A stretch of 64,000 nucleotides of DNA from a virus. The stretch lies in the UHGV virus genome UHGV-0248979; one strand, written 5' to 3'. The notes under the pieces were generated by a model. It worked only from the letters and a program-made list of their open reading frames with translations, had not been told where the DNA came from and searched no databases. Positions 2,726-59,299 of the stretch are shown here, piece by piece. Within the stretch, counting starts at the first letter, position 1, and every line of letters begins with the position of its first letter. The translations under genes were made by a program, and so were the position numbers.

Positions 2726-3256
2726 TTAAGCAGTAAAGCCGTCAAGTTCACCGTCGGTGGTGGCCAGGTCAATACGATTATCAACAACTTTCGGCGTAAT
2801 TACGAAAGTTGCCATTACACCCGGTTTATAACGGAGGTTCTTTTCAGTAACGGTACAAGTTACCGTACGCAGAGTGACGCTATCGTGTTCGTCTTTCTGG
2901 TCTTCGGTGGTGTACTCAACGTCACCAGGTGCGATAGAGTCGTCAGGTTTTACTTTATTGATGTAAAACTGTAATCGGTCGCGTAGTTCGTTTTCTCCAG
3001 TCCAGAGAGCCAAATCGTCCGTTACCTCAATGCGTCCGACAACGCCAGGTTCCAGACGATCGTAATGCAGTTCGATTGCGCCTTTAAAATTTTCAGACTC
3101 TGTACGTGCGGTCATGGTAACTTTGGTATTTTTATCGCCCTTTTCAAGAGCGACAGGTTGACCAAAAGTTACCTCTTTATCAGTGACCTGATGCGGTAGC
3201 TCTGTGTTAGCAGCATTATAAAGCGCAACTAACATCATCTGGTTAGTAGCTGCCAT
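2726..3256 (-). CDS. paralog family member P1 (putative tail-associated protein); C-terminus ELDGFTA
   Basis: 176 aa; N-terminal pattern shared with five other ORFs in the window; C-terminus shared with 3324..3890. Confidence 0.6.
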   Translation of the reverse strand: MAATNQMMLVALYNAANTELPHQVTDKEVTFGQPVALEKGDKNTKVTMTARTESENFKGAIELHYDRLEPGVVGRIEVTDDLALWTGENELRDRLQFYINKVKPDDSIAPGDVEYTTEDQKDEHDSVTLRTVTCTVTEKNLRYKPGVMATFVITPKVVDNRIDLATTDGELDGFTA

Positions 3257-3307
3257 TATCTTAAATCCTTAAAATGAAAGTTAAAGAAATATCGGGGGAG
3301 GTTACCA

Positions 3308-3316
3308 CCCCCCCCC
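3308..3316 (-). repeat. homopolymeric G9 tract (C9 on the plus strand), intergenic between P2 and P1
   Basis: Nine consecutive C read directly at 3308-3316. Confidence 0.9.
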
Positions 3317-3323
3317 GAATCAA

Positions 3324-3890
3324 TTACTCTTTAGGCGCTGGTGCGGTGAAGCCATCCAGTTCACCTTCCAAACCGCTCAGTGCTACTTTCTCAATAGCCG
3401 GAGGAGTAACTTTATACGTTGCAACAGTACCTGGCAGGAACTTCAGGTGTCCAGTCACAACAGTTACTACGTAAATGGTTTTGCCTTCTTCTTCACGGGA
3501 AATAGTTTGCAGGTCGTTTTCACCGAACTCGTCATCGGTGTACCCCTTCTCAACCATGGCTGCGTTAACTTTTGCCAGGATTTTCGTTGGTGAATCGAAA
3601 TCGGTAGTAGGTGCAGTTACTTCAACTTCACCAACGATGTCGCAGGAAAGACGAGTATAGTGGAATTCTTTCTCGCCTTTGAAGTTCTGGCTTTCTGCCT
3701 TGGCGGTCAGAGTAATTTTAGTGTTGCGGCCAGCTTCTCCGGTGAAGTCAGCGACAGCACTAAAGTCAACATCAGCTACGGTGAGAGCGGAGCTCAGAGA
3801 GCTGTTTTTAGTGTTAATAAGTTCGATAAGCTGCTGTTGAAAAGTTTTAGCCATTGTTTTTACCTCGTAAGTAGTATGGGTGGTTTGCAT
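3324..3890 (-). CDS. paralog family member P2 (putative tail-associated protein)
   Basis: 188 aa; tandem paralog of P1, same ELDGFTA C-terminal motif plus a PAPKE extension. Confidence 0.6.
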   Translation of the reverse strand: MQTTHTTYEVKTMAKTFQQQLIELINTKNSSLSSALTVADVDFSAVADFTGEAGRNTKITLTAKAESQNFKGEKEFHYTRLSCDIVGEVEVTAPTTDFDSPTKILAKVNAAMVEKGYTDDEFGENDLQTISREEEGKTIYVVTVVTGHLKFLPGTVATYKVTPPAIEKVALSGLEGELDGFTAPAPKE

Positions 3891-4592: not shown

Positions 4593-5108
4593 TTAAATCT
4601 CGACTAAGGCGCTCCAATCGATTGGTTTTTGCTTAACAACTTTCACAGTACCACGATTTGGTGACCAGAAAGTAATGTTAGGCTGGTTACGAACGTCAAT
4701 GTGCAACCAACTGATGTCACATTCAATAAAGTGAATGAACGGAAACTCGTCAGGGTTAGCAGCGATATAGTCGTGAACCTGTTTTACGGTGCTATCCAAC
4801 AACGTTGCATCAATGGCGTTACCGAATTTGTGTTGACTTCCTGAATCGGCGTAAAGCTGCAACGCACGTTGTTTATAACTACCACCCTTAGGCTTTTCTT
4901 GATTAATAAAGAAATCTAAGGTTCTTAGTCCGCGCTGTTGTGCGGCAGTTGAGTTAATCACCATTCTGCCGAAACGATTACGAATCTGTTGTAGGGAGAT
5001 CATTAACAACGGATTCATAAACCGAATTGCGGAATCGCCGTATTTGGCAATATAGGACTGTGGTACTAACTCTCTGAGTTTAAAGTTACTCGGATTTGGA
5101 TGAAACAT
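4593..5108 (-). CDS. peptidase M15-like cell-wall hydrolase (DUF882/Peptidase_M15_3-like)
   Basis: Motif SQHKFGNAIDA (SxHxxGxAxD) and a later His, typical of zinc D,D-carboxypeptidase-like M15 domains. Confidence 0.6.
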   Translation of the reverse strand: MFHPNPSNFKLRELVPQSYIAKYGDSAIRFMNPLLMISLQQIRNRFGRMVINSTAAQQRGLRTLDFFINQEKPKGGSYKQRALQLYADSGSQHKFGNAIDATLLDSTVKQVHDYIAANPDEFPFIHFIECDISWLHIDVRNQPNITFWSPNRGTVKVVKQKPIDWSALVEI

Positions 5109-15399: not shown

Positions 15400-17520
15400 T
15401 TAAATAACTACCCAGCTTTTACCATCGGAACCAATCTGCATTAGCGTAATACTTTCACTGGTATCAATGGGTTTGGCAAGACCTTCTGTCCCACTCTTTG
15501 GAGTGATGAGAACGTTTGAATTTTCCGGTTTAACGGTGATCTTACCAGCCTTATTTGCCACGATCTGAATATTTCTGCCCACGCTATATTCTAGATCAGG
15601 AATAGTAAGTTGGCCGCCACGGTTGGTGGGTGGGAAATACACATAAGACGACACATCTTCCTCAGATAACACTATGCTACCAGAATCACGATTGACCGAG
15701 ATCTCAAACTTAGAAATATCGATATCATAGGCAGTAACTTTCGTAATATCCGTCAGAACCAATTCGTTCAAATCGGTCTTAGCTGGACTGTTCGCCAGAT
15801 CAAATGGAGTACCATTCGTACCGTCCAGCACAGGTGTGACTGTGGTTTTATTGGCACCAGGATAAATGATTTCAAGCGTATGCCAGTTATTATCGTACGC
15901 ACCAAAAGTTCCTAATTTCGCATTTTGCTTTTTATGATGCATCAGATTAAGATTCGTAGCGTCGGTCTGTAAGAAAAAAGACATTAGGTACGGGTTCGTC
16001 TCAGCCACACCAGCGTCAGCAAATGTAGTACCAGAAGGTAGGTCGGACGCGGAAATACGCCAATAAAGTCCTAATCCGAAACGATCTGCTGCTAAATCAC
16101 CTTTTAGTCTAAAAGTAACGGTCAGACGTCCACCGTAACGTATCATGTCCGCAGCAGATGTCATTGACTTAGTTACATTCCAAGGTTTCATCTTTACAGC
16201 CTTTCTTAATTCGACGAAATGCCCGTTTCCATCCTCAGAATCTTGCACGGTTACGTTACAATCAACGATATTGTTCCAACCTTGCCCTTTCAGGGAACCA
16301 TCCCCACGACGTCCGTTATAACCCACAGACTCTACTAATGGGGTATAGCTTCTTACCACATTCTTATTGTCTTTGGAGCTCTTAGTGTCGTTCTTCGTCA
16401 GGAACATTGCACCAATCGCTGTTCTTGATAATATCTCGGCAGCTATTCTCTCTGAGATAATACCGCGTCGTGCCCAAGAACTGAAATGGCTATTCCTTGT
16501 TTCAGACGTCCAGTTTTTAACAGTACGGGAGGCAGCACCGTAATAGGCCGCACCAGTGATATCAGGATCGTCAGTGGGATCATTAGTCGGTACACGTTGG
16601 CCATTATCGTCGTACATGAATGGAACAAAAAAGATATTTTTTTGTTCATTGTTACGATAATTACCGTATACGGTTTCATATTGGGCAGGATATTTTTCCT
16701 TCCAATAATAGGTAGTGTCCCCGCAGATCCATGGTACTTCGGCGGTGTCGTACTCGGGCATCTGAGAGAGATGGTCAGAGAGATCAGTTCGGAAACGCTC
16801 TACCATTGCGTTAAATAACGCTGGTTGTTGTGCGTATTGTACTTTAGTCAGATCATACTCTCCCTGCATCCACACTACAGCCAAGAGTTTATTTTTAGGA
16901 TTAACTTCTAGAGCTTTTTTGGTCCGGCTAACTAAATCTTTATAAAGCGGTTTCTCCACCCCCCATAGCATTGACGACTCAGTGGCTCCTGTGGCTTCAT
17001 CGAAGGTACCTTCTGCACCACCCGTGAAAGCAGAACCGCCGCGTGCGCAGGGTACTAGTAAGATACCGGCGTTCTTAGGAATATACGGGAGAAGACGCTT
17101 CGCGATATGTAGACCTTGACCCACACATCCGTATTCACCTTTGCTCAAATTGGCATTGGGATGCGAGTATTTGGACATATCTTGCACGTCGTGCAGACAG
17201 TGATCCGCTGGAATGACGTCGTTATATTTACAATCAGCCCCATTAGGCGTTACCTTCGCACGGCGCGCCATCTGTTTAATTCGCGGATCGGGAGCGTCCA
17301 ACGTCGCCGGTAGAGGCAACCCTTCACCATAACTCATCGCATTAGATTGCCCGGCTATAGGAATCACGAAGTAATACTCCGGCTCCGTCGTGCCCTGAAG
17401 TTTTGCAATATCAATTTTATATTCTTTTTCTTCCTTAGAAAGAAGAACTAACGCACCTTTGAGATCGCCAGAGAAATTGTCGAGTTCATGGATACGTTTC
17501 TTTCCAATTGGCTGACTCAT
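15400..17520 (-). CDS. tailspike/tail fibre protein with SASA/SGNH-type carbohydrate esterase domain
   Basis: 706 aa; N-terminal segment homologous to the 1479-aa fibre N-terminus; GQSNAMSY motif typical of sialate O-acetylesterase-like SGNH hydrolases. Confidence 0.65.
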   Translation of the reverse strand: MSQPIGKKRIHELDNFSGDLKGALVLLSKEEKEYKIDIAKLQGTTEPEYYFVIPIAGQSNAMSYGEGLPLPATLDAPDPRIKQMARRAKVTPNGADCKYNDVIPADHCLHDVQDMSKYSHPNANLSKGEYGCVGQGLHIAKRLLPYIPKNAGILLVPCARGGSAFTGGAEGTFDEATGATESSMLWGVEKPLYKDLVSRTKKALEVNPKNKLLAVVWMQGEYDLTKVQYAQQPALFNAMVERFRTDLSDHLSQMPEYDTAEVPWICGDTTYYWKEKYPAQYETVYGNYRNNEQKNIFFVPFMYDDNGQRVPTNDPTDDPDITGAAYYGAASRTVKNWTSETRNSHFSSWARRGIISERIAAEILSRTAIGAMFLTKNDTKSSKDNKNVVRSYTPLVESVGYNGRRGDGSLKGQGWNNIVDCNVTVQDSEDGNGHFVELRKAVKMKPWNVTKSMTSAADMIRYGGRLTVTFRLKGDLAADRFGLGLYWRISASDLPSGTTFADAGVAETNPYLMSFFLQTDATNLNLMHHKKQNAKLGTFGAYDNNWHTLEIIYPGANKTTVTPVLDGTNGTPFDLANSPAKTDLNELVLTDITKVTAYDIDISKFEISVNRDSGSIVLSEEDVSSYVYFPPTNRGGQLTIPDLEYSVGRNIQIVANKAGKITVKPENSNVLITPKSGTEGLAKPIDTSESITLMQIGSDGKSWVVI

Positions 17521-17523
17521 CTA

Positions 17524-18036
17524 CTACTCTCCAAAAGTTAAGATTTTATTGTCAAACGTCAACACGACAGAATCATCACCGATGCCACACGGTGTTTCAT
17601 CTGGGCCGAAAACCACCACGGAGAACTGTCCTTTATAAGCGATGGAATTCGGAGCGATGCTAAGCGTTACCGCGTCTTTACCTACCGTGAACGACTGGTC
17701 GGTTAAATCGTCGGTTTGTAAGTTAGCACCACAAACGGCATTGACGGATTCGATAAGATCGTGTGCATTAAACCCTTCACCTCTTACTTTTACCAGAATA
17801 GGTTGTTGGTTTAACCACCGCTCTGCGGTTAAACGGTTGTAGTAGATTTGCAACGTTCTGTTTCCAGGACGTTTAATCTTTACAATGGCAGTGGAGTCAC
17901 GATCCATTTCATCACTGGTTTTTACGTCACTGACTTCAACCTCGTTCTCTTGCAAGTCAAGTTGGAGGTCATGGTTAACCAGTGAAATAACCATGTTAAG
18001 TGAAGTTAGTGATAAATCTGGTGTGAATTTTTCCAC
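17524..18036 (-). CDS. paralog family member P5, translationally coupled to the tailspike gene
   Basis: 170 aa; GTG start preceded by an AGGAGG RBS; stop 3 nt before the tailspike ATG. Confidence 0.6.
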   Translation of the reverse strand: MEKFTPDLSLTSLNMVISLVNHDLQLDLQENEVEVSDVKTSDEMDRDSTAIVKIKRPGNRTLQIYYNRLTAERWLNQQPILVKVRGEGFNAHDLIESVNAVCGANLQTDDLTDQSFTVGKDAVTLSIAPNSIAYKGQFSVVVFGPDETPCGIGDDSVVLTFDNKILTFGE

Positions 18037-18090
18037 GTATGTTTACCTCCTACGGTTGGGGGTCATAAAATATTGACTAAAAAACATTCA

Positions 18091-18100
18091 CCCCCCCCCC
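18091..18100 (-). repeat. homopolymeric G10 tract (C10 on the plus strand), 5' of P5
   Basis: Ten consecutive C read directly at 18091-18100. Confidence 0.9.
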
Positions 18101-18103
18101 ACG

Positions 18104-18131
18104 ATTATTTTCAACCGCTTTCAGTTGAAAA
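18104..18131 (-). terminator. hairpin at the 3' end of the adhesin-like gene
   Basis: 12-bp perfect stem attattttcaac/gttgaaaataat with loop cgctttca. Confidence 0.5.
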
Positions 18132-18134
18132 TAA

Positions 18135-18642
18135 TTAGCTAATTCTCAAATCACGCAGTGCGCCTGTCGATTTCATCACGTTTTGGAACGCAGCGCTGAT
18201 GTTATTAGTCCAGTAATAATGCTGTCCGTTAATAACCTGCTGATAGGCCAGCGCGCAGGTGTTACCACCTAAATTTACGGTAATGTTAGAGGCTCTGCCT
18301 CCTTGTAAGTAAACCGCTAAAGTAGGCTTTGCGTTGGCAACTATCGTCGTTAACTGTAACTCAATACCTACTAAAGTTCCCACCCCGCAGTTACCCGCGT
18401 TTTGAATGGTTCCCTGATTTTTCTGGTTTAACGGCCAGCTTGGTCCTACTGCGCCCCATTTCTTACCTAAAGAATCGCTATATGCAGCGGTTGCAATTTT
18501 ACAGCCCATAGATCGTCCCACCATTTGACTCATCATAAAAGGTCTACCCAATCCTAATTTACTACCAGCAGCGCTCATCCATTGTTCGCCCGTTTCGTTC
18601 TTGGCCGAAGAACCGACCCACGAACCGGTTACCCCCCCCCAT
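18135..18642 (-). CDS. adhesin-like tail fibre-associated protein, paralog B; 5' end put out of frame by a G9 tract
   Basis: ORF track gives 18135..18578. The same frame is open upstream (…GSWVGSSAKNETGEQW) and matches paralog A's N-terminus; an ATG with AGGAG RBS at 18642-18640 is +1 out of frame across the G9 run. Confidence 0.6.
18632..18640 (-). repeat. homopolymeric G9 tract overlapping the start codon of adhesin-like paralog B
   Basis: Nine consecutive C at 18632-18640; the minus strand reads AT-GGGGGGGGG-TAACC. Confidence 0.9.
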
Positions 18643-18654
18643 CGCGATCTCCTG

Positions 18655-18885
18655 TTAAGATTTTCTACATGTTATTGAATCGAAAGCACCACGCCCAACC
18701 CAACGCCAATTATAATGATGATCAGCTTTATAAAGTGTGTATCTGCCCTGCTTTTTTACGTCGAAAATATTGATCGTAGTCTCTTCATTACCCAGCTTAG
18801 CTGTGCCGTAACATACAGGTTCGGGTAGTTGTTGACATCCACTTACTGTAAGCAATGCGAAACCCAGTAAAACTTTTCTTAACAT
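18655..18885 (-). CDS. small lipoprotein between the two adhesin-like genes (candidate receptor-masking protein)
   Basis: 76 aa; signal peptide with lipobox (LLTVSG-C); mature part about 59 aa with further Cys. Confidence 0.6.
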   Translation of the reverse strand: MLRKVLLGFALLTVSGCQQLPEPVCYGTAKLGNEETTINIFDVKKQGRYTLYKADHHYNWRWVGRGAFDSITCRKS

Positions 18886-18895
18886 CTTTCTGTCC

Positions 18896-19441
18896 TTAGA
18901 CTACACTTATTGAAATTGTTGCACCGTTCTGATTAAATAACCAGTTGGTTGCCGTCTTAGCCTCATAGCGCCGGACGCCGTTACTGTAGGAGTACGGTAG
19001 AAAAGTAATCTTCGTTCCGTTAAACGAAAGCGTAATATTCTGATTTGGTCCATTGGTTAGGGCCATGTAGATAATACCAGTATTTTGTACTTGGCTAAGA
19101 TGTGTGACGCTACAACCCAAGATCGAACCTGACACCGAACCGGCCGCATTTTGTGTTTGCACACGATTCGATACTGTAGAACCAGCACCCGTTGTTGTAG
19201 AGTTGTTCGAATACCCCCCATACGTATTTGTAATAGGAACCCACTGCGTGTTCGTAGCCTGCACCAAAACAACATAGGTTGATCGGCCTACAACGAGTTT
19301 AAGATCCTCTACGCTACGCCCGACCATCTGCGACATGTTAAATGGCGTGCTCAGTTTAAGCTTATTACCTGCCACACTCATCCACTCCTGACCGGTTACT
19401 GCCTTTGCTGAGCTTCCAACCCAGCCGGATGCTACCCCCAT
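18896..19441 (-). CDS. adhesin-like tail fibre-associated protein, paralog A
   Basis: 181 aa, Gly/Ser/Thr/Asn-rich; ATG with GGAGGA RBS just downstream of the fibre gene terminator. Confidence 0.65.
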   Translation of the reverse strand: MGVASGWVGSSAKAVTGQEWMSVAGNKLKLSTPFNMSQMVGRSVEDLKLVVGRSTYVVLVQATNTQWVPITNTYGGYSNNSTTTGAGSTVSNRVQTQNAAGSVSGSILGCSVTHLSQVQNTGIIYMALTNGPNQNITLSFNGTKITFLPYSYSNGVRRYEAKTATNWLFNQNGATISISVV

Positions 19442-19451
19442 AAATCCTCCA

Positions 19452-19481
19452 AACTAAAATAGGGGGATTACTCCCCCTATC
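19452..19481 (-). terminator. hairpin terminator after the tail fibre gene
   Basis: Hairpin tagggggagtaatccccctat followed by a T-rich run on the minus strand. Confidence 0.6.
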
Positions 19482-19482
19482 T

Positions 19483-22400
19483 TTAATTCCCCTTGAGTTC
19501 TTTAAGCTCTTGGCGAAGAGTTTTCATGCCTTCTACTAACAACGCAATAACACCATTGTAATTTAGACGTAAACGTTTTTCGCCTGAAATGGCATCGTCG
19601 TCCTCGGACACAAGTTCAGGTAACGCTTCTAATGCGTCCTGAGCAATTAGACCTACAGAAGTCTGCCAACCGTCATCAGGATGCTGAATTTCGTACAAAT
19701 AACCGGTTAGTAACTCTAACCGATCCAAAGCTTTATCCAGCTTCACCAGATTACGTTTGTTACGACGGTCAGAACGAATCTGTACGTCGTTAAACGAACC
19801 GTTACCGTTGCCAGTAACGTTATGTCCAAAGTTTACTTGGCCGTTAGAATTATTAAAAGACAACGGGCGTAATCCGTTCCAGGAACCCGCTGCGGCTTGT
19901 CCGGCGTCGGTTACTAAGAAATAGGTATTGGCACCGTCGTTACGTAAAATAAAACCGTAGGTACCGTAAGCGATTCGAAAATCAGGGTATTTAGTGGCCA
20001 ATTTACCATTAACGGTTAAATCACCGCCTACAGTACCGCCCCCTGACGGTAACGCGCCCACTTCCGCAGCAGTTGGCTTGTTTCTCGTATTGTAAGCACG
20101 ACGCCAGCCTGGTGAGTATCCATCGCCGTTAAATACGTAGATAAACTCCGCATTAGTGAGTGCTCCGCCGACGCTCGTCGTTGTGGCGGTCGTTATACGG
20201 ATCGTGTAGTTGTTTGTGCTGTTGCCGTTACTAATGACTTCTATAACGGCCCCAGCTAACGGAATGACACCACAACCCGTCTCGCTGTGAGGTATGGACG
20301 CACTGGCGGCATAAGCCCACGCACAGCGAGCAACCCACGATCTTGTGGTAAATGCGCCGTTATTTTTCAATAACGTCACTAGCTGTGCTGTAGTTATTGC
20401 ACCGCCATTAGCGCCAGTTTCTAACCAACCACTAGGTGATGCCGGACAACCTATTTCGGCTGGCCCTAACGCTATATTTCTAGTGCCATCAAACGCAATA
20501 CCATTGATGGTTCTTGCGGTTTGCAACTTTGTTGCCGTGGCTGCGTTTCCGGTGGTCGACTGATTCCCTGTTTGGTTTACTCCAGGTAAACTGATGTCTT
20601 TAGTACCATCAAAAGCTACGCCACCTATATTTCGAGCAGTCTGTAGCTTAGTCGCTGTCGCCGCATTCCCCGTAGTCGATTGGTTACCGGTTTGGTTTAC
20701 ACCAGGAAGATTAACGTCTTTTGTCCCATCGAACACCACACCGCCGATCTTACGTGCGGTTTGTAACTTAGTAGCGGTCGCTGCATTACCTGTCGTATTC
20801 TGGTTGCCTTGCTGGTTAACGCCCGGTAAATTGATATCACCTGTACCGTCAAAGCTAACGCCTCCGATCCTGCGAGCGGTTTTCAGTTTCGTCGCGGTAG
20901 CGGCGTTGCCGGTAGTATCCTGATTACCTGTGGCATTTACACCAGGAATGCTATCACGGGCAGTATAAACTTGTGCCCAATCTGACCACGGCGCATCAGC
21001 AGTATCACGTCGACTACGAATATAAACGGGTGCGTGCGCACCGCTCGTCCCCGACCATCCGATTAACAGTTCCCCTTCGCCTAGCGCAGCAGAACCGCCC
21101 AAATGCAGTAAGTTACCATAAGCGGTTGGATAACCGTTATTGTAAACTTCGTACATCTGAATACCGGGTGTACCTTTGTTTGATCCAGTCAGTGCAGTAA
21201 CACGTCCACGTCCTACCAACGTGTTGATATTGATGTCTCTAGACCCATCAAATTTCACACCGTTGATGTTTCGAGCCGTTTGTAATTTGGTTGCGGTTCC
21301 CGCGTTCCCAGAGGTGTTTTGATTACCCTGTTGGTTTACACCAGGGAGGCTAATGTCTCCGCTACCGTCGAAACTTACACCGCCGATTAAACGGGCTGTT
21401 TTCAGTTTCGTTGCCGTAGCAGCATTGCCTGTTAACTCACCTGATAACCCTTTTGCAAAGGTCTGTTTTTCTGCCCACGTATGCGCTGCATTCAATACGG
21501 GCATCTGGCGGCTAGTAATAGTACGTTTACCCTTTTCACCAGCGACGCGAACAGCAAAGAAGCGATAGTTAGCAGTAGACACTGTACCACGCCAGACCAA
21601 CATACTCCGGCCAGTACCGGTGTCCTCCGACGCCCCTACAAGAATAGTAACCAAGTTACCGTCGATAACACCCCAATCCATTCCCGCAGGAATGTTTTTC
21701 ATGGTATTCAATGGTGTACTTATCATCTGGCCAGGAACGAAGTCGAAGGTTTGCCAGTCTAACGGATCTACCTTAGCAGCAACCCCACCGATCCCTAAAG
21801 CCAACGGGAGTGAATAGGATGTGAAAATCTCTCGCCATTCGCTCCAGGCATTTCCTGTACGAATTCGTTGGAACTTGCGACCTTTCGAAGTTGCGCCTGT
21901 ACCGTATGTGGTATAATTTTGTTCAACACCTGAACCGTCTAAGCGTAAGGTAACTTCGCAAACGCCTAGCAAGGTTGCGCCAGCAGAGTCTGTTAACGGA
22001 CCGTCTGTAGCCTCGCCGGTAACACTAAAGCGACCCGGTTTAGTTAAGTCGTTAAAGCTACCCTTATAGTAGGCACCGTCTACCTGATACCCAACCTGAA
22101 TCCAATCTTCCCACTGCGGATTAGACGAATCCCAAGTCGCAGTCAAACCACGGACATACATCGTACCACGACGAGTGGTGTAACGTTGTAAACGTCCATA
22201 AAGACCGCCTTCCATGACTTCTAATACGCCTTGCGCATTACCGCCCTCTTCAGGATAATGTCTGTCGAACACCGCTAACGAACTGGACGAGTTACGCCAG
22301 TTACCCATGTGCTCAGCGCCGCCTAAGGAGTTCAGATCGATCGATGTAGATAACGGGCGTACACCTGTAGTTACCATTCTCCACGGTGACCACGGGCCAT

Positions 22401-23922
22401 TAGTTCCGTTCCACGCGGCTGACAACATGCGGTTGTACACGTTACCATTACGGCAGGTAAAACGTTGCGCTCCACTGTAGTTGCCCGCTTTATACACTTC
22501 TAGATAACCTACCGCACCGTCTTCCGGGAAGTGTTTTGCTATTGATGCGTTTGTTGATGTCGACTTGGACCATGTTCCTGTGTAATTGGCATCTGGAGCA
22601 AATGTGTTAATATCAGCATCTGCGGGCATTTCACCACGGAAACGCAGATAGGTATCAGGAGATAGACCAATATTGCGAGCAAAGGTTTCTTTATTGGGGA
22701 TATCAGCACCGTTAGAGTTTTTCTGTAACGCAGAGTTCGCTTTATCTACAGTGGCTTTTAATCCCAAGAAATTGATGATATCCGCAGTTGTCCCTTTTGC
22801 TAACAAGGTTCTGGCGGTTTCTGTAAAGTCAGTTAACCCGACTTTATTAGTGCCAGTGAAATAAGGGAGCTTGTTTGCTGCGGTTGTGACTGCGGCAATA
22901 GCAGTAAGTAGTGGACTGATAGGTTGCTTCTGTGCAAGTTTCTCAGTAATCGTTGTTGCGAAGTTAGGGTCATTACCTAACGCCGTAGCTAATTCCGCTA
23001 AGGTATCTAACGTCTCAGGTGAAGAACCAACCAATTCCGCGATAGCAGCACGCACCCAGGCCGTTGTGGAGATGCTCGTGTCGTTCGAGTCCTTTGGGGG
23101 CGTTGGTGATGTCGGGTTACCCGTAAAATTCGGCGAATGTTTATCGGCTTTTAACTGTAATTCGTCGTTCAGCTGTTTAACCGTGGACGGTGTGGCAGCC
23201 TCCGTCACGGATTCGCTAGTCAGGGTATTGTTAAGTTTAACGATACCTTTACCGGTCGTACTAGCGTCAACTAAACCCTGTGCAGCGATTTTCTCCGCAC
23301 GCAGAGCGGCTGACTCCGAGCGTGTAGCTGCGCCTTCTGAGCTTTCTTTATCTTTCGTAACCTGCGCAGCAACCTTCTCCACCGCGCCCTTACTGGCCTC
23401 AATTGAAGCCGCAGTATTTGCGATACTGGTAGCGGTCTGTTGAACCTGTCCGGCCCGTTGCGTAACCGTTTCTGCTTTCTTAGTTACATCAGCCGCTACA
23501 GCTGTCACAGATTGTTCGCTTGCGGCGACAGCTTGAGCCTTCTCATTTACTGATTGTGAAACAGTATCTACGGCAGTTTTTGCTGCTAAAACTTCAGCGT
23601 GTTTTTTGTTAACCTCCGCAGTTTTAGTGGCGACGGTTCCCGCTTGCTCATTAACTGTGGAAGCTAAAGTGGTGGTCTGTTGCTTCGCTGTTTCTGCTAA
23701 ATCTTTAGCTTTCGTAGCTTCTGTTGCGGACTGTTGTGATTTGGCCGCAGCCGTTTGTGCATCAGCAACCGCACTTCTGACGGTGTCAATGTCCGCAACG
23801 ATCTCGCGGACTGGTAACTTATAATCTTTTTCGTCTTTCGAAAAAAGTAAAACGCCTTCACCGATATCCCCGGTGTACGGATGTAAGTCGTGTAAACGTA
23901 TTTTCTTTACCGCTTTAGCCAT
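19483..23922 (-). CDS. long tail fibre protein with C-terminal intramolecular chaperone (peptidase S74-like) domain
   Basis: 1479 aa; Ala/Thr/Gln-rich N-terminal region; six ~40-aa repeats (GNQxTTGNAATATKLQTAR.IGGV.FDG); C-terminal SDRRNKRNL...LVEGMKTL motif typical of self-cleaving chaperone domains. Confidence 0.85.
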   Translation of the reverse strand: MAKAVKKIRLHDLHPYTGDIGEGVLLFSKDEKDYKLPVREIVADIDTVRSAVADAQTAAAKSQQSATEATKAKDLAETAKQQTTTLASTVNEQAGTVATKTAEVNKKHAEVLAAKTAVDTVSQSVNEKAQAVAASEQSVTAVAADVTKKAETVTQRAGQVQQTATSIANTAASIEASKGAVEKVAAQVTKDKESSEGAATRSESAALRAEKIAAQGLVDASTTGKGIVKLNNTLTSESVTEAATPSTVKQLNDELQLKADKHSPNFTGNPTSPTPPKDSNDTSISTTAWVRAAIAELVGSSPETLDTLAELATALGNDPNFATTITEKLAQKQPISPLLTAIAAVTTAANKLPYFTGTNKVGLTDFTETARTLLAKGTTADIINFLGLKATVDKANSALQKNSNGADIPNKETFARNIGLSPDTYLRFRGEMPADADINTFAPDANYTGTWSKSTSTNASIAKHFPEDGAVGYLEVYKAGNYSGAQRFTCRNGNVYNRMLSAAWNGTNGPWSPWRMVTTGVRPLSTSIDLNSLGGAEHMGNWRNSSSSLAVFDRHYPEEGGNAQGVLEVMEGGLYGRLQRYTTRRGTMYVRGLTATWDSSNPQWEDWIQVGYQVDGAYYKGSFNDLTKPGRFSVTGEATDGPLTDSAGATLLGVCEVTLRLDGSGVEQNYTTYGTGATSKGRKFQRIRTGNAWSEWREIFTSYSLPLALGIGGVAAKVDPLDWQTFDFVPGQMISTPLNTMKNIPAGMDWGVIDGNLVTILVGASEDTGTGRSMLVWRGTVSTANYRFFAVRVAGEKGKRTITSRQMPVLNAAHTWAEKQTFAKGLSGELTGNAATATKLKTARLIGGVSFDGSGDISLPGVNQQGNQNTSGNAGTATKLQTARNINGVKFDGSRDININTLVGRGRVTALTGSNKGTPGIQMYEVYNNGYPTAYGNLLHLGGSAALGEGELLIGWSGTSGAHAPVYIRSRRDTADAPWSDWAQVYTARDSIPGVNATGNQDTTGNAATATKLKTARRIGGVSFDGTGDINLPGVNQQGNQNTTGNAATATKLQTARKIGGVVFDGTKDVNLPGVNQTGNQSTTGNAATATKLQTARNIGGVAFDGTKDISLPGVNQTGNQSTTGNAATATKLQTARTINGIAFDGTRNIALGPAEIGCPASPSGWLETGANGGAITTAQLVTLLKNNGAFTTRSWVARCAWAYAASASIPHSETGCGVIPLAGAVIEVISNGNSTNNYTIRITTATTTSVGGALTNAEFIYVFNGDGYSPGWRRAYNTRNKPTAAEVGALPSGGGTVGGDLTVNGKLATKYPDFRIAYGTYGFILRNDGANTYFLVTDAGQAAAGSWNGLRPLSFNNSNGQVNFGHNVTGNGNGSFNDVQIRSDRRNKRNLVKLDKALDRLELLTGYLYEIQHPDDGWQTSVGLIAQDALEALPELVSEDDDAISGEKRLRLNYNGVIALLVEGMKTLRQELKELKGN
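20470..21450 (-). repeat. tandem ~117-nt coding repeats (phage tail fibre repeat units) inside the fibre gene
   Basis: Near-identical nucleotide units in two blocks (4 + 2 copies) separated by an insert; boundaries approximate. Confidence 0.7.
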
Positions 23923-24127: not shown

Positions 24128-24724
24128 TCATGTAGCCGGGTTTTCTTCAGCGGAGTCTCCATCTGGAACCTCAAATGTAAGAACAGCATCGTCACCAATA
24201 CAGAAGATTGCATCTTCTTCGTTTGCTAATGCCCGTTCAGTTTTATCAAATAACGTCACCATAAACGCATTCACCCACGCTGGAGAATCGTCAGCAACGT
24301 TGACAGCAATAGGATCGTTACCTAAAGTGATATCTGAAGCATGTAAATCCTCGGGTTGTAAGTTCGTTCCGCAGAATTCATTTACAACACCTAAAATGTC
24401 ACGAAGGTTGTCTTCGGTACCATCTAACGAAATCAAAATAGGTTCGGACGCTAACACTTTGTCCGCATCCAAGCGGTCGTAATAAACAACTACAGAAGCA
24501 CCATCAGGTTTCCTGATTTTTGTAATCTCTGTCAGTGTGTTACGACGCGACGTAGTCGGGGACAGGTTTGCCATAGTGTTGCTAATACGAATTTCGCTTA
24601 GAGACAACCGTGAACCGTTATCGTGGTTGATTAAAGCGACCACCAATTCGGCTGAGGACAGACTTAAATCAGGTACGTATGTGGCCACTATAGCCTCCCA
24701 GATCAAAAAAAAAATAAAAAACAT
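24128..24724 (-). CDS. paralog family member P6, upstream of the tail fibre gene
   Basis: N-terminal region (VPDLSLSSAELVVALINHDNG) homologous to P5; true start probably a GTG near 24681 with GGGAGG RBS (the ORF-track N-terminus translates a poly-T run). Confidence 0.55.
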   Translation of the reverse strand: MFFIFFLIWEAIVATYVPDLSLSSAELVVALINHDNGSRLSLSEIRISNTMANLSPTTSRRNTLTEITKIRKPDGASVVVYYDRLDADKVLASEPILISLDGTEDNLRDILGVVNEFCGTNLQPEDLHASDITLGNDPIAVNVADDSPAWVNAFMVTLFDKTERALANEEDAIFCIGDDAVLTFEVPDGDSAEENPAT

Positions 24725-49343: not shown

Positions 49344-49354
49344 ATAGCAAAAAA

Positions 49355-49400
49355 AAAATAATTCGAGCTTACTCCGACCCTTCTGGGGTCGGAGTAGCTT
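49355..49400. terminator. bidirectional rho-independent terminator between convergent genes
   Basis: Hairpin gcttactccgaccc-ttct-ggggtcggagtagc flanked by an A-run upstream and a T-run downstream. Confidence 0.75.
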
Positions 49401-59157: not shown

Positions 59158-59299
59158 GTCTGGGGAGCTTCGGCTCCCCCTATAACCCCTTATGCGTCTC
59201 GAAAAGCAAAAAAAAACAGAAGGCTATTAATTATGAACGGAAAACAACTACCGAACTAAGTAGGGGGTGTTGCTACCACCCCCTTTATTAGTTAGTAAC

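Follow-up and report, generated by a model that had tools for sequence, protein, structure and literature searches.

Hypermutable G7–11 tracts are known from receptor-binding protein genes of the Campylobacter phages of the genus Fletchervirus (Sorensen et al. 2021, Cell Rep 35:109214, as summarised in bioRxiv 10.1101/2025.10.21.683753 and PMC10877375). In these phages, homopolymer length shifts the frame of a receptor-binding gene, one phage has more than one receptor-binding protein, and a population divides into ON and OFF phages that use different receptors. Contingency loci have also been measured in agt of T2 and rIIA of T4, and the same study found the tail-fibre genes and other infection genes of the BASEL coliphages to be depleted of repeats of at least 6 (Gomez, Barrick and Waters, bioRxiv 10.1101/2025.10.21.683753). 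Experimental proof of homopolymer switching of phage receptor-binding proteins has so far come only from Campylobacter phages. Here we consider a stretch of 64,000 nucleotides (nt) from virus genome UHGV-0248979, called the window below. On its minus strand, a run of nine G is fused to the start codon of a predicted tail-fibre adhesin gene, adhesin B (18135..18642; 168 amino acids (aa) with G8), which lies behind another adhesin gene of the same type, adhesin A. We think it likely that the run is a slipped-strand poly-G contingency switch providing translational on/off control of the second tip adhesin. If this is true, the locus clearly exemplifies such switching in nature, in a jumbo phage of enterobacteria, and extends it to another phage group and another gene family. 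Genotypes of both kinds, ON and OFF, can already be seen in dozens of wild assemblies.

The locus resembles those of Fletchervirus in the type of repeat, a phage homopolymer of G7–11 in a receptor-binding gene, in the effect of its length on the frame, and in the presence of more than one receptor-binding protein per phage. Subpopulations using different receptors, described there, would be expected here. The differences are numerous. The host is enterobacterial (E. coli, Shigella, Salmonella), not Campylobacter with its poly-G-rich genome, and the phage is an SPN3US-like jumbo phage of about 225 kb. The switched gene encodes a small tip adhesin of the Gp38_N type and no fibre or H-fibre protein. 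Its tract is continuous with the start codon, and it follows a cassette of a constitutive adhesin and a Cor protein. Finally, the evidence here is metagenomic polymorphism, not experiment. We observed no homology of the phage or of adhesin B to Fletchervirus: the relatives of the phage are of the SPN3US, Asesino and Machina types, and the homologues of the adhesin come from Stx phages, T-even-like phages and CMS-2020a. Judging by these comparisons, the resemblance is an analogy of mechanism, not common descent.

Bacterial contingency loci (surface genes of Neisseria, Haemophilus and Campylobacter) and the T2 and T4 loci share with the proposed switch a 5'-proximal repeat, reversible frameshifts, a conserved open reading frame (ORF) and repeat length uncoupled from phylogeny. 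At the present locus we find a repeat of hypermutable length (for G/C homopolymers, about 7–8 or more), its switching position on an intact gene, and length polymorphism that does not follow phylogeny. The T2 and T4 loci are mostly A/T runs of 6–9 in non-structural genes, whereas the window has a long G run in an adhesin gene. Unlike that of a bacterium, the phenotype of a virus is built by the parental genome, and genotype and virion are offset by one cycle. The invertible tail-fibre segments of Mu and P1 and the diversity-generating retroelements of Bordetella phage BPP-1 have the same outcome, a lysate heterogeneous in receptor specificity, but the switch in the window would be a change in homopolymer length, without an invertase, inverted-repeat crossover sites or a reverse transcriptase.

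The minus strand at the start of adhesin B reads ...TAA C AGGAG ATCGCG ATG GGGGGGGG TAACCGGTTCG..., where the TAA is the stop codon of a small gene, with the Shine–Dalgarno sequence AGGAG (18649..18653) 6 nt 5' of the ATG (18640..18642). The G of this ATG is the first base of the G run (18632..18640), and the tract occupies codons 1–4 of the gene. We take this ATG for the true start codon, as homologues begin at the same position with ATGGGGGTA or ATGGGGATA. With G9, as in the window, the product from the ATG ends after 26 codons (MGGGNRFVGRFFGQERNGRTMDERCW, then a stop). An alternative frame is open from 5' of the tract to the stop at 18135 and reads RWGGVTGSWVGSSAKNETGEQWMSAAGSK... / GGVTGSWVGSSAKNETGEQWMSAAGSK.... 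Since G9 puts the ATG out of frame, the list of ORFs shows only one of 147 aa for this gene (18135–18578, from the internal Met22), its longest conventional one as it stands in the window. This arrangement, an out-of-frame ATG behind AGGAG and fused to nine G, is the core of the original prediction, and we reproduced it from the sequence.

Frame outcomes were simulated by setting the run to 4–14 G. Full-length adhesin B is obtained with G5, G8, G11 and G14 (167, 168, 169 and 170 aa, respectively), and all other lengths yield just 2–27 aa: G7, G10 and G13 lead to the TAA directly after the run (G-TAA-CC), and G6, G9 and G12 to a peptide of 25–27 aa. The earlier statement that translation stops after 26 codons with G9 and is complete with 8 or 11 G is thereby confirmed.

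Both paralogs are indeed adhesin-like, as had been proposed. The restored adhesin B matches Pfam Gp38_N (PF21721) over positions 2–40 of 40 (E 1.3e-18), and adhesin A matches it over positions 1–40 (E 2.4e-20), both above the gathering threshold; both also belong to phrog_1121, tail fiber adhesin, with E 7e-53 for A. Full-length homologues of adhesin B have identities of 59–95%. Those in P13374 and phi191, Stx phages of a different set from those with relatives of adhesin A, and in phage CMS-2020a (residues 3–168, 59–63% identity) are annotated as tail fibre adhesin or Gp38. On the basis of this homology we predict that A and B function as adhesins. A search of the PDB sequences with adhesin B gave no match at E up to 1.

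Contigs of the same phage, about 225 kb long, were found by exact-protein look-ups in many independent metagenome assemblies. We tabulated the tract in 16 independent assemblies of the species, the window included; all tract lengths given here are consensus calls of short-read metagenome assemblies. The run is G7 in one assembly, G8 in one, G9 in six (with the window), G10 in six and G11 in two. The comparison of tract length in related phages, which had been suggested as a check, thus gives G7–G11 within a single species. The ribosome-binding site (RBS), the ATG and the purity of the tract (all G) are kept in every copy.

The length of the tract does not follow the relatedness of the genomes. 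In an alignment of 15 genomes with 11,149 columns, four pairs differ by at most one single-nucleotide polymorphism (SNP), and in three of the four the tract length differs: 8 vs 9 (L008/L026), 9 vs 11 (L011/L021) and 11 vs 9 (L012/L017), each time ON vs OFF. Over all pairs the difference in tract length is uncorrelated with the SNP distance (Spearman -0.06, Mantel p 0.60). The control gives the opposite picture: the ATG+G5 start of adhesin A is unchanged in 15 of 15 genomes. More generally, length varies in 3 of 48 runs of 5–7 nt vs all three runs of at least 9 (G9, G10 and T10).

For the adhesin B allele of the window we also made a census of contigs, across the whole collection, by exact product sequence. 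The OFF state, seen as shortened calls, is represented by 55 contigs (54+1), and the ON state by 18, namely 12 with G8 and 6 with G11; the census has no record of this allele with G5 or G14. Annotation calls adhesin B as a protein of 124 or 147 aa in three quarters of the genomes.

Downstream of the tract the gene is well preserved. The 165 codons 3' of it are intact in 16 of 16 genomes, where just three alleles occur, with 3–5 synonymous vs 1 nonsynonymous differences and a ratio of nonsynonymous to synonymous substitution rates (dN/dS) of about 0.06–0.1, and the identical protein is encoded on 73 contigs.

The long run is derived. The single-adhesin relatives have an orthologue of B (84–95% aa identity) that begins 4 nt after the fibre stop codon and starts ATGGGGGTAGCA (MGVASGW, G5). 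G5 is also present at the adhesin start of CMS-2020a (ATGGGGGTAACA) and at that of the B-type adhesin in an element from E. coli 98232 (ATGGGGGTAGCG); the adhesin of P13374 starts ATGGGGATAACA, and the B-type adhesin of an element from Enterobacter ludwigii starts ATGGCTGTAGCA, without a G run. Since only G5 or no run was seen at the adhesin B start of the orthologues and more distant homologues compared, the run in the window has arisen from the native Met-Gly-Val codons, whose G5 expanded to G7–G11.

Dual adhesins are not confined to the window lineage. In the elements of E. coli 98232 (L039) and E. ludwigii (L040), an intact B-type adhesin gene stands behind one for a T2-type Gp38 that has glycine-rich motifs. 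The possibility that the first adhesin in L039 (5186–5965) is N-terminally frameshifted was rejected: this T2-type gp38 is mis-annotated from an internal Met, and a TTG start 63 nt upstream, with the RBS AAGGTGG, restores its conserved ...PGWIGSSAK N-terminus. One more protein, P0018, has an N-terminal extension that is the out-of-frame 3' end of a T2-type gp38 running into ...EGRWGGVASGW. Read from the protein, this implies a second adhesin starting with ATG+G9, and hence another dual-adhesin layout; likewise, P0022 (MGGVASGW) implies a tract of G8. The second-adhesin tract may have evolved more than once, in the window lineage and in the lineage of P0018 and P0022.

The tract and its frame logic, the natural polymorphism, near-isogenic pairs included, the conserved ORF and a run that was short in the ancestral state are all direct observations, and they favour length variation at the DNA level, of the slipped-strand kind, over a single consensus error. 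The slipped-strand interpretation offered in the original prediction, next to transcriptional slippage and a homopolymer sequencing error, has gained support: the tract is polymorphic, both states are common, near-isogenic genomes differ in state, the ORF is intact, and homologues have G5 or no run. We are highly confident that in natural populations the tract is hypermutable and really determines the ON or OFF state. That it is also maintained adaptively, as a host-range switch, we believe with moderate confidence, at or slightly above an even chance. By calling the locus phase-variable we infer both a rate and a function.

The mechanism that we propose is as follows. Slipped-strand mispairing during replication of the phage DNA would change the run by one or more G. 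With G8 or G11 the ATG would be in frame and would give an adhesin of 168 or 169 aa with a complete Gp38_N fibre-docking domain; with G7 or G10 translation would run into the TAA directly after the tract, and with G9 only the 26-aa peptide would be made. Adhesin A, which starts with G5 and is paired with Cor, would be startable constitutively. Adhesin B, when ON, would share the fibre tips with A or compete for them, and add a second receptor specificity; competition for the same tip is presumed because the N-terminal docking domain is common to both. Each lysate would then hold B-ON and B-OFF genomes, and infections by B-ON genomes would yield virions with the second specificity. As it is the infecting genome that supplies the proteins of new particles, the phenotype of a virion would lag the genotype packaged in it by one infection cycle. 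With a switchable adhesin beside another that shares its docking domain, the phage probably hedges its bets on host range. Consensus genomes of therapeutic or reference phages can conceal such a heterogeneous receptor repertoire, and tract-locked variants could fix or broaden the host range.

Several considerations weigh against an evolved switch. Homopolymers of 9–11 are error-prone, and the lengths come from short-read consensus; moreover, contigs break at G tracts (L003), and the T10 run also varies between 9 and 10. In-frame states make up about 19–25% of genomes, at or below the 33% expected at random, and the modal lengths, G9 and G10, are both OFF; hence there is no sign that ON is favoured. 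The signal of purifying selection comes from just 4–6 substitutions per comparison. Further, both intergenic G tracts of the phage, described below, vary equally, so variability is a property of any long G run here and alone does not prove an evolved switch. The roles of adhesin B in adsorption and host range, like the protein itself, are predicted from sequence. Finally, relaxed selection would account for the pattern too, if the second adhesin is redundant.

Of the alternatives, this last one, in which a redundant gene drifts neutrally, is the most serious. It holds that adhesin B became redundant after the insertion of A and Cor (or behind another adhesin), that its ATG-GGG-G codons expanded by slippage, and that the gene now drifts between frames and is about to become a pseudogene, with a tract that is hypermutable but non-adaptive. 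Such drift is consistent with the ON state in just 3 of 16 assemblies and 18 of 73 contigs, not above random, with G9 and G10 as the modal states; with the restriction of expanded tracts to genomes in which another adhesin precedes B (the window lineage, and P0018 behind a T2-type gp38), single-adhesin relatives keeping G5; and with variation of the intergenic G tracts to the same degree. However, no other lesion is found in the 165 codons of any of the 16 genomes, and the protein is identical on 73 contigs; synonymous polymorphisms prevail (3–5 vs 1 nonsynonymous); the tract remains pure G, with RBS and ATG intact in all copies; and two different ON lengths persist in many samples. In addition, the E. 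coli 98232 element retains both adhesins intact, with G5, and therefore a second adhesin is not inherently dispensable. On balance we consider drift unlikely, though it deserves more weight than any other alternative.

Much less probable is an artefact of sequencing or assembly, in which one in-frame length (e.g. G8) is fixed and the spread over G7–G11 reflects short-read homopolymer miscalls. Variation is nearly confined to homopolymers of at least 9, T10 included; assemblies break at G tracts, one assembly (L038) has a coverage of just 2.8x, and the lengths of the adhesin B and intergenic tracts are loosely similar within samples. Nevertheless, there are five consensus lengths, with 2-nt differences between genomes that are 1 SNP apart and come from the same cohort with the same pipeline naming. 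The distribution is centred on 9–10, not on an in-frame value, and multiple contigs stand behind each state (12 for G8, 6 for G11 and 55 out of frame). The homologues show that the run has expanded from G5, whichever length is true. G/C homopolymers are unstable, and a run of G8 or longer at a start codon is expected to slip in vivo anyway.

We likewise give little credence to expression of adhesin B despite the frameshift, by transcriptional slippage on G9–G11, ribosomal frameshifting or reinitiation, with the tract setting a dose and not an on/off state: long homopolymers are known slippage sites of RNA polymerase, the OFF genotypes, which are the majority, still keep the ORF intact, and in G9 genomes the 26-codon upstream peptide terminates 16 nt 3' of the Met22 ATG, close enough to be consistent with reinitiation. 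On the other hand, well-documented sites of transcriptional slippage in bacteria and phages consist mostly of A/T runs, the sequence shows neither an evident slippery heptamer nor a stimulatory structure, and the DNA-level variation is directly observed and sufficient for the data. Slippage or reinitiation could nevertheless add some leaky expression to a DNA-level switch. A stimulatory RNA structure at the adhesin B start was rejected as a candidate, as the fold of 18590–18670 is no better than that of shuffled sequences (z +0.11). Nor is there a Shine–Dalgarno sequence 5' of Met22 in the window. The invariant Gp38_N residues include W8, G10, S11, S12, A13, K14, G18, W21 and M22, and because 8 of the 16 invariant residues of the shared N-terminal region precede Met22, a product started there would miss half of the docking domain.

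The order of genes in the module is fibre, adhesin A, cor, adhesin B, all on the minus strand. The long tail fibre (19483..23922, 1479 aa; Pfam PF21446, PF03406 and PF13884) has phage fibre repeats and a Gp34_trimer domain, and its C-terminus is an intramolecular chaperone of the Peptidase_S74 type. It is separated from adhesin A by a terminator-like hairpin, GGGGG-AGTAAT-CCCCC followed by a T run (19454..19482). Adhesin A (18896..19441, 181 aa) starts ATGGGGGTAGC with G5 and has 68.6% nucleotide identity to the adhesins of Stx2 phage 86 and POCJ13.

The small gene between the two adhesins (18655..18885, 76 aa, lipobox LTVSGC) is a lipoprotein gene, as had been noted earlier, and specifically a homologue of the Cor superinfection-exclusion lipoproteins (phrog_1119, E 1.3e-25). 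Its product is 44–61% identical to the annotated Cor proteins of N15, SSU5, POCJ13 and Stx2 phage 86 (tblastn). The receptor of classical Cor proteins is FhuA. Cor proteins are known to disable the phage's own outer-membrane receptor (PMC11990801). The presence of such a partner hints at the receptor of adhesin A. In the Shigella phage POCJ13 (L041 2513–3298) the order tail fibre, A-type adhesin (546 nt), Cor is the same as in the window, and adhesin A and Cor (18655–19441) are a two-gene cassette common to Stx-converting and Shigella podophages. The cassette sits between the fibre gene of the jumbo phage and its resident adhesin, which is a case of module exchange across very different phage types. 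The right junction of the POCJ13 cassette was considered as the origin of the G tract and rejected, as no similarity was found.

Both adhesins resemble Gp38 of T2 and S16 and the adhesins of Sepvirinae (ORF66 of P13374, gp57 of POCJ13) in the Gp38_N docking domain, the position of the gene directly after the long tail fibre, and the modular, exchangeable C-terminal receptor-binding part. They differ from T2-type Gp38 in that the glycine-rich motifs of the T2/S16 type were found in neither A nor B, which belong to the phrog_1121 subtype common to Stx phages. The window also differs in having two tandem adhesins, and the described homologues are without an expanded G run at the start.

Directly after the adhesin B stop there is a terminator-like hairpin with a 14-bp stem, AUUAUUUUCAACUG-AAAG-CGGUUGAAAAUAAU (18104..18135, minus strand; RNA fold of 141 nt, z -2.55), and relatives have an equivalent hairpin. 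The next gene encodes a DUF7941 virion structural protein with a GTG start (17524..18036, minus strand, 170 aa; Pfam PF25613; phrog_2935, phrog_1037). It is followed by a gene for a SASA esterase/DUF6645 protein (15400..17520, minus strand, 706 aa; Pfam PF03629 and PF20350), probably a tail-spike-like glycan esterase by its domains. The G6 run at about 16960 in this gene is G7 in L026, which splits the protein into 193 + 533 aa; L026 lies 1 SNP from a genome with G6.

The original prediction mentioned two more G tracts, in the same receptor-binding region and nowhere else in the window. The count stands: the only G/C runs of at least 7 in the 64 kb are 3308–3316 (9), 18091–18100 (10) and 18632–18640 (9), all of them G on the coding (minus) strand. 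The location is only loosely right, because the other two tracts are intergenic, in or next to terminator-like hairpins, and the one at 3308 is about 15 kb from the adhesin module. The C runs of the window have lengths up to 6 and then 9–10, with none of 7–8. By a first-order Markov model 0.08 runs of at least 9 are expected vs three observed, and three or more occurred in 0 of 300 simulations.

The tract at 18091..18100 (G10 in the window) follows the adhesin B hairpin and precedes the DUF7941 gene. It varies from G9 to G11 across assemblies of the window phage and is predicted by RNA folding to pair with CCCCC at about 18055–18059, just 5' of the next RBS. It is kept in L004–L006, L038 and L039, with lengths 9, 9, 10, 10 and 11, and is degenerate (GGAGGGGG) in L040 from E. 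ludwigii. The third tract (3308..3316, G9 in the window) is G9 in two, G10 in seven and G11 in two of 11 assemblies. It forms the 5' arm of a G-rich hairpin, UCGGGGGGGG / CCUCCCCCGA with the loop GUGGUAA, followed by a U-rich stretch (3292..3318, minus strand; z -2.0), which separates two DUF7941-like paralogs, 3324–3890 and 2726–3256 (phrog_4862, phrog_1037). The two intergenic tracts (18036–18135 and 3256–3324) have a common context, ATC-G(n)-TG..., and can pair with C4-5 just 5' of the next RBS; in L016 and L027 an intergenic G tract is interrupted (GAG10). As both intergenic tracts vary, long G runs are variable wherever they are present in the phage, and that of adhesin B is the only one placed where its length decides whether a protein is made.

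Since the G run at 18091–18100 is predicted to pair with C5 before the next RBS, the intergenic tracts could tune downstream expression: as hairpin arms upstream of DUF7941 genes, they could, according to the modelled folds, adjust read-through or translation. The three tracts might then form a multi-locus poly-G switch set in the host-recognition region, with combinatorial virion types per burst, which if true would be a viral counterpart of bacterial multi-gene contingency systems. We consider such a set doubtful.

The window is part of a gut jumbo phage of about 225 kb, distantly SPN3US-like; phages of the SPN3US, Asesino and Machina types have about 74% identity to it, over short stretches only. 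Phages of the phiKZ/SPN3US-like group are transcribed by their own polymerases. Members of the window-phage cluster are present in Shigella, Salmonella and E. coli assemblies, and hence the host is enterobacterial. Assemblies of Shigella and Salmonella isolates, too, include contigs of about 225 kb, and the sample names of most wild assemblies look like those of human cohorts. More divergent relatives were found in Logan and NCBI assemblies, and related elements of about 222 kb have been deposited as circular plasmids, NZ_CP173450.1 (E. coli 98232) and NZ_CP134650.1 (E. ludwigii). The plasmid deposits and isolate contigs suggest carrier-state or pseudolysogenic persistence, or co-sequenced phage.

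Other databases yielded little. The INPHARED phage records contain no close relative spanning the locus, only a 135-nt match to CMS-2020a and distant jumbo-phage matches elsewhere. Pattern scans of IMG/VR for starts of the window type and the VASGW type, with any tract length, gave 0 matches, and the conserved 43-mer that lies just 3' of the tract likewise matched none of the JGI metagenome contigs scanned; one JGI contig (L007) was recovered via the exact-protein index.

Some minor variation was observed at other sites. Strains differ in the intergenic A10 run at 24705–24714 (T10 in coding orientation), which has a length of 9 or 10 (7 vs 8 genomes), and hence long A/T runs are also length-polymorphic; the window has two more long A runs, A10 at 49349–49358 and A9 at 59208–59216. 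In L004 an extra intergenic G9 (4815–4823) lies between a 1001-aa tail gene and the fibre gene, where the window is without a long run. The (GA)n repeat 5' of a 283-aa gene, at about 15331 of the window, has one extra unit in one strain (L019). A 1-nt deletion outside homopolymers in L017 (about 3659, corresponding to about 21230 of the window) changes ATCAATATCAAC to ATCAATACAAC and splits the fibre into 902 + 557 aa; either a defective variant or a mistake of the assembly could explain this. Finally, a 120-nt (40-aa) unit of the GNQxTTGNAATATKLQTAR...DG array of the fibre, at about 20587–20706, is present or absent between strains (L018, L026), giving fibres of 1479 vs 1439 aa, that is, copy-number variation within one phage species.

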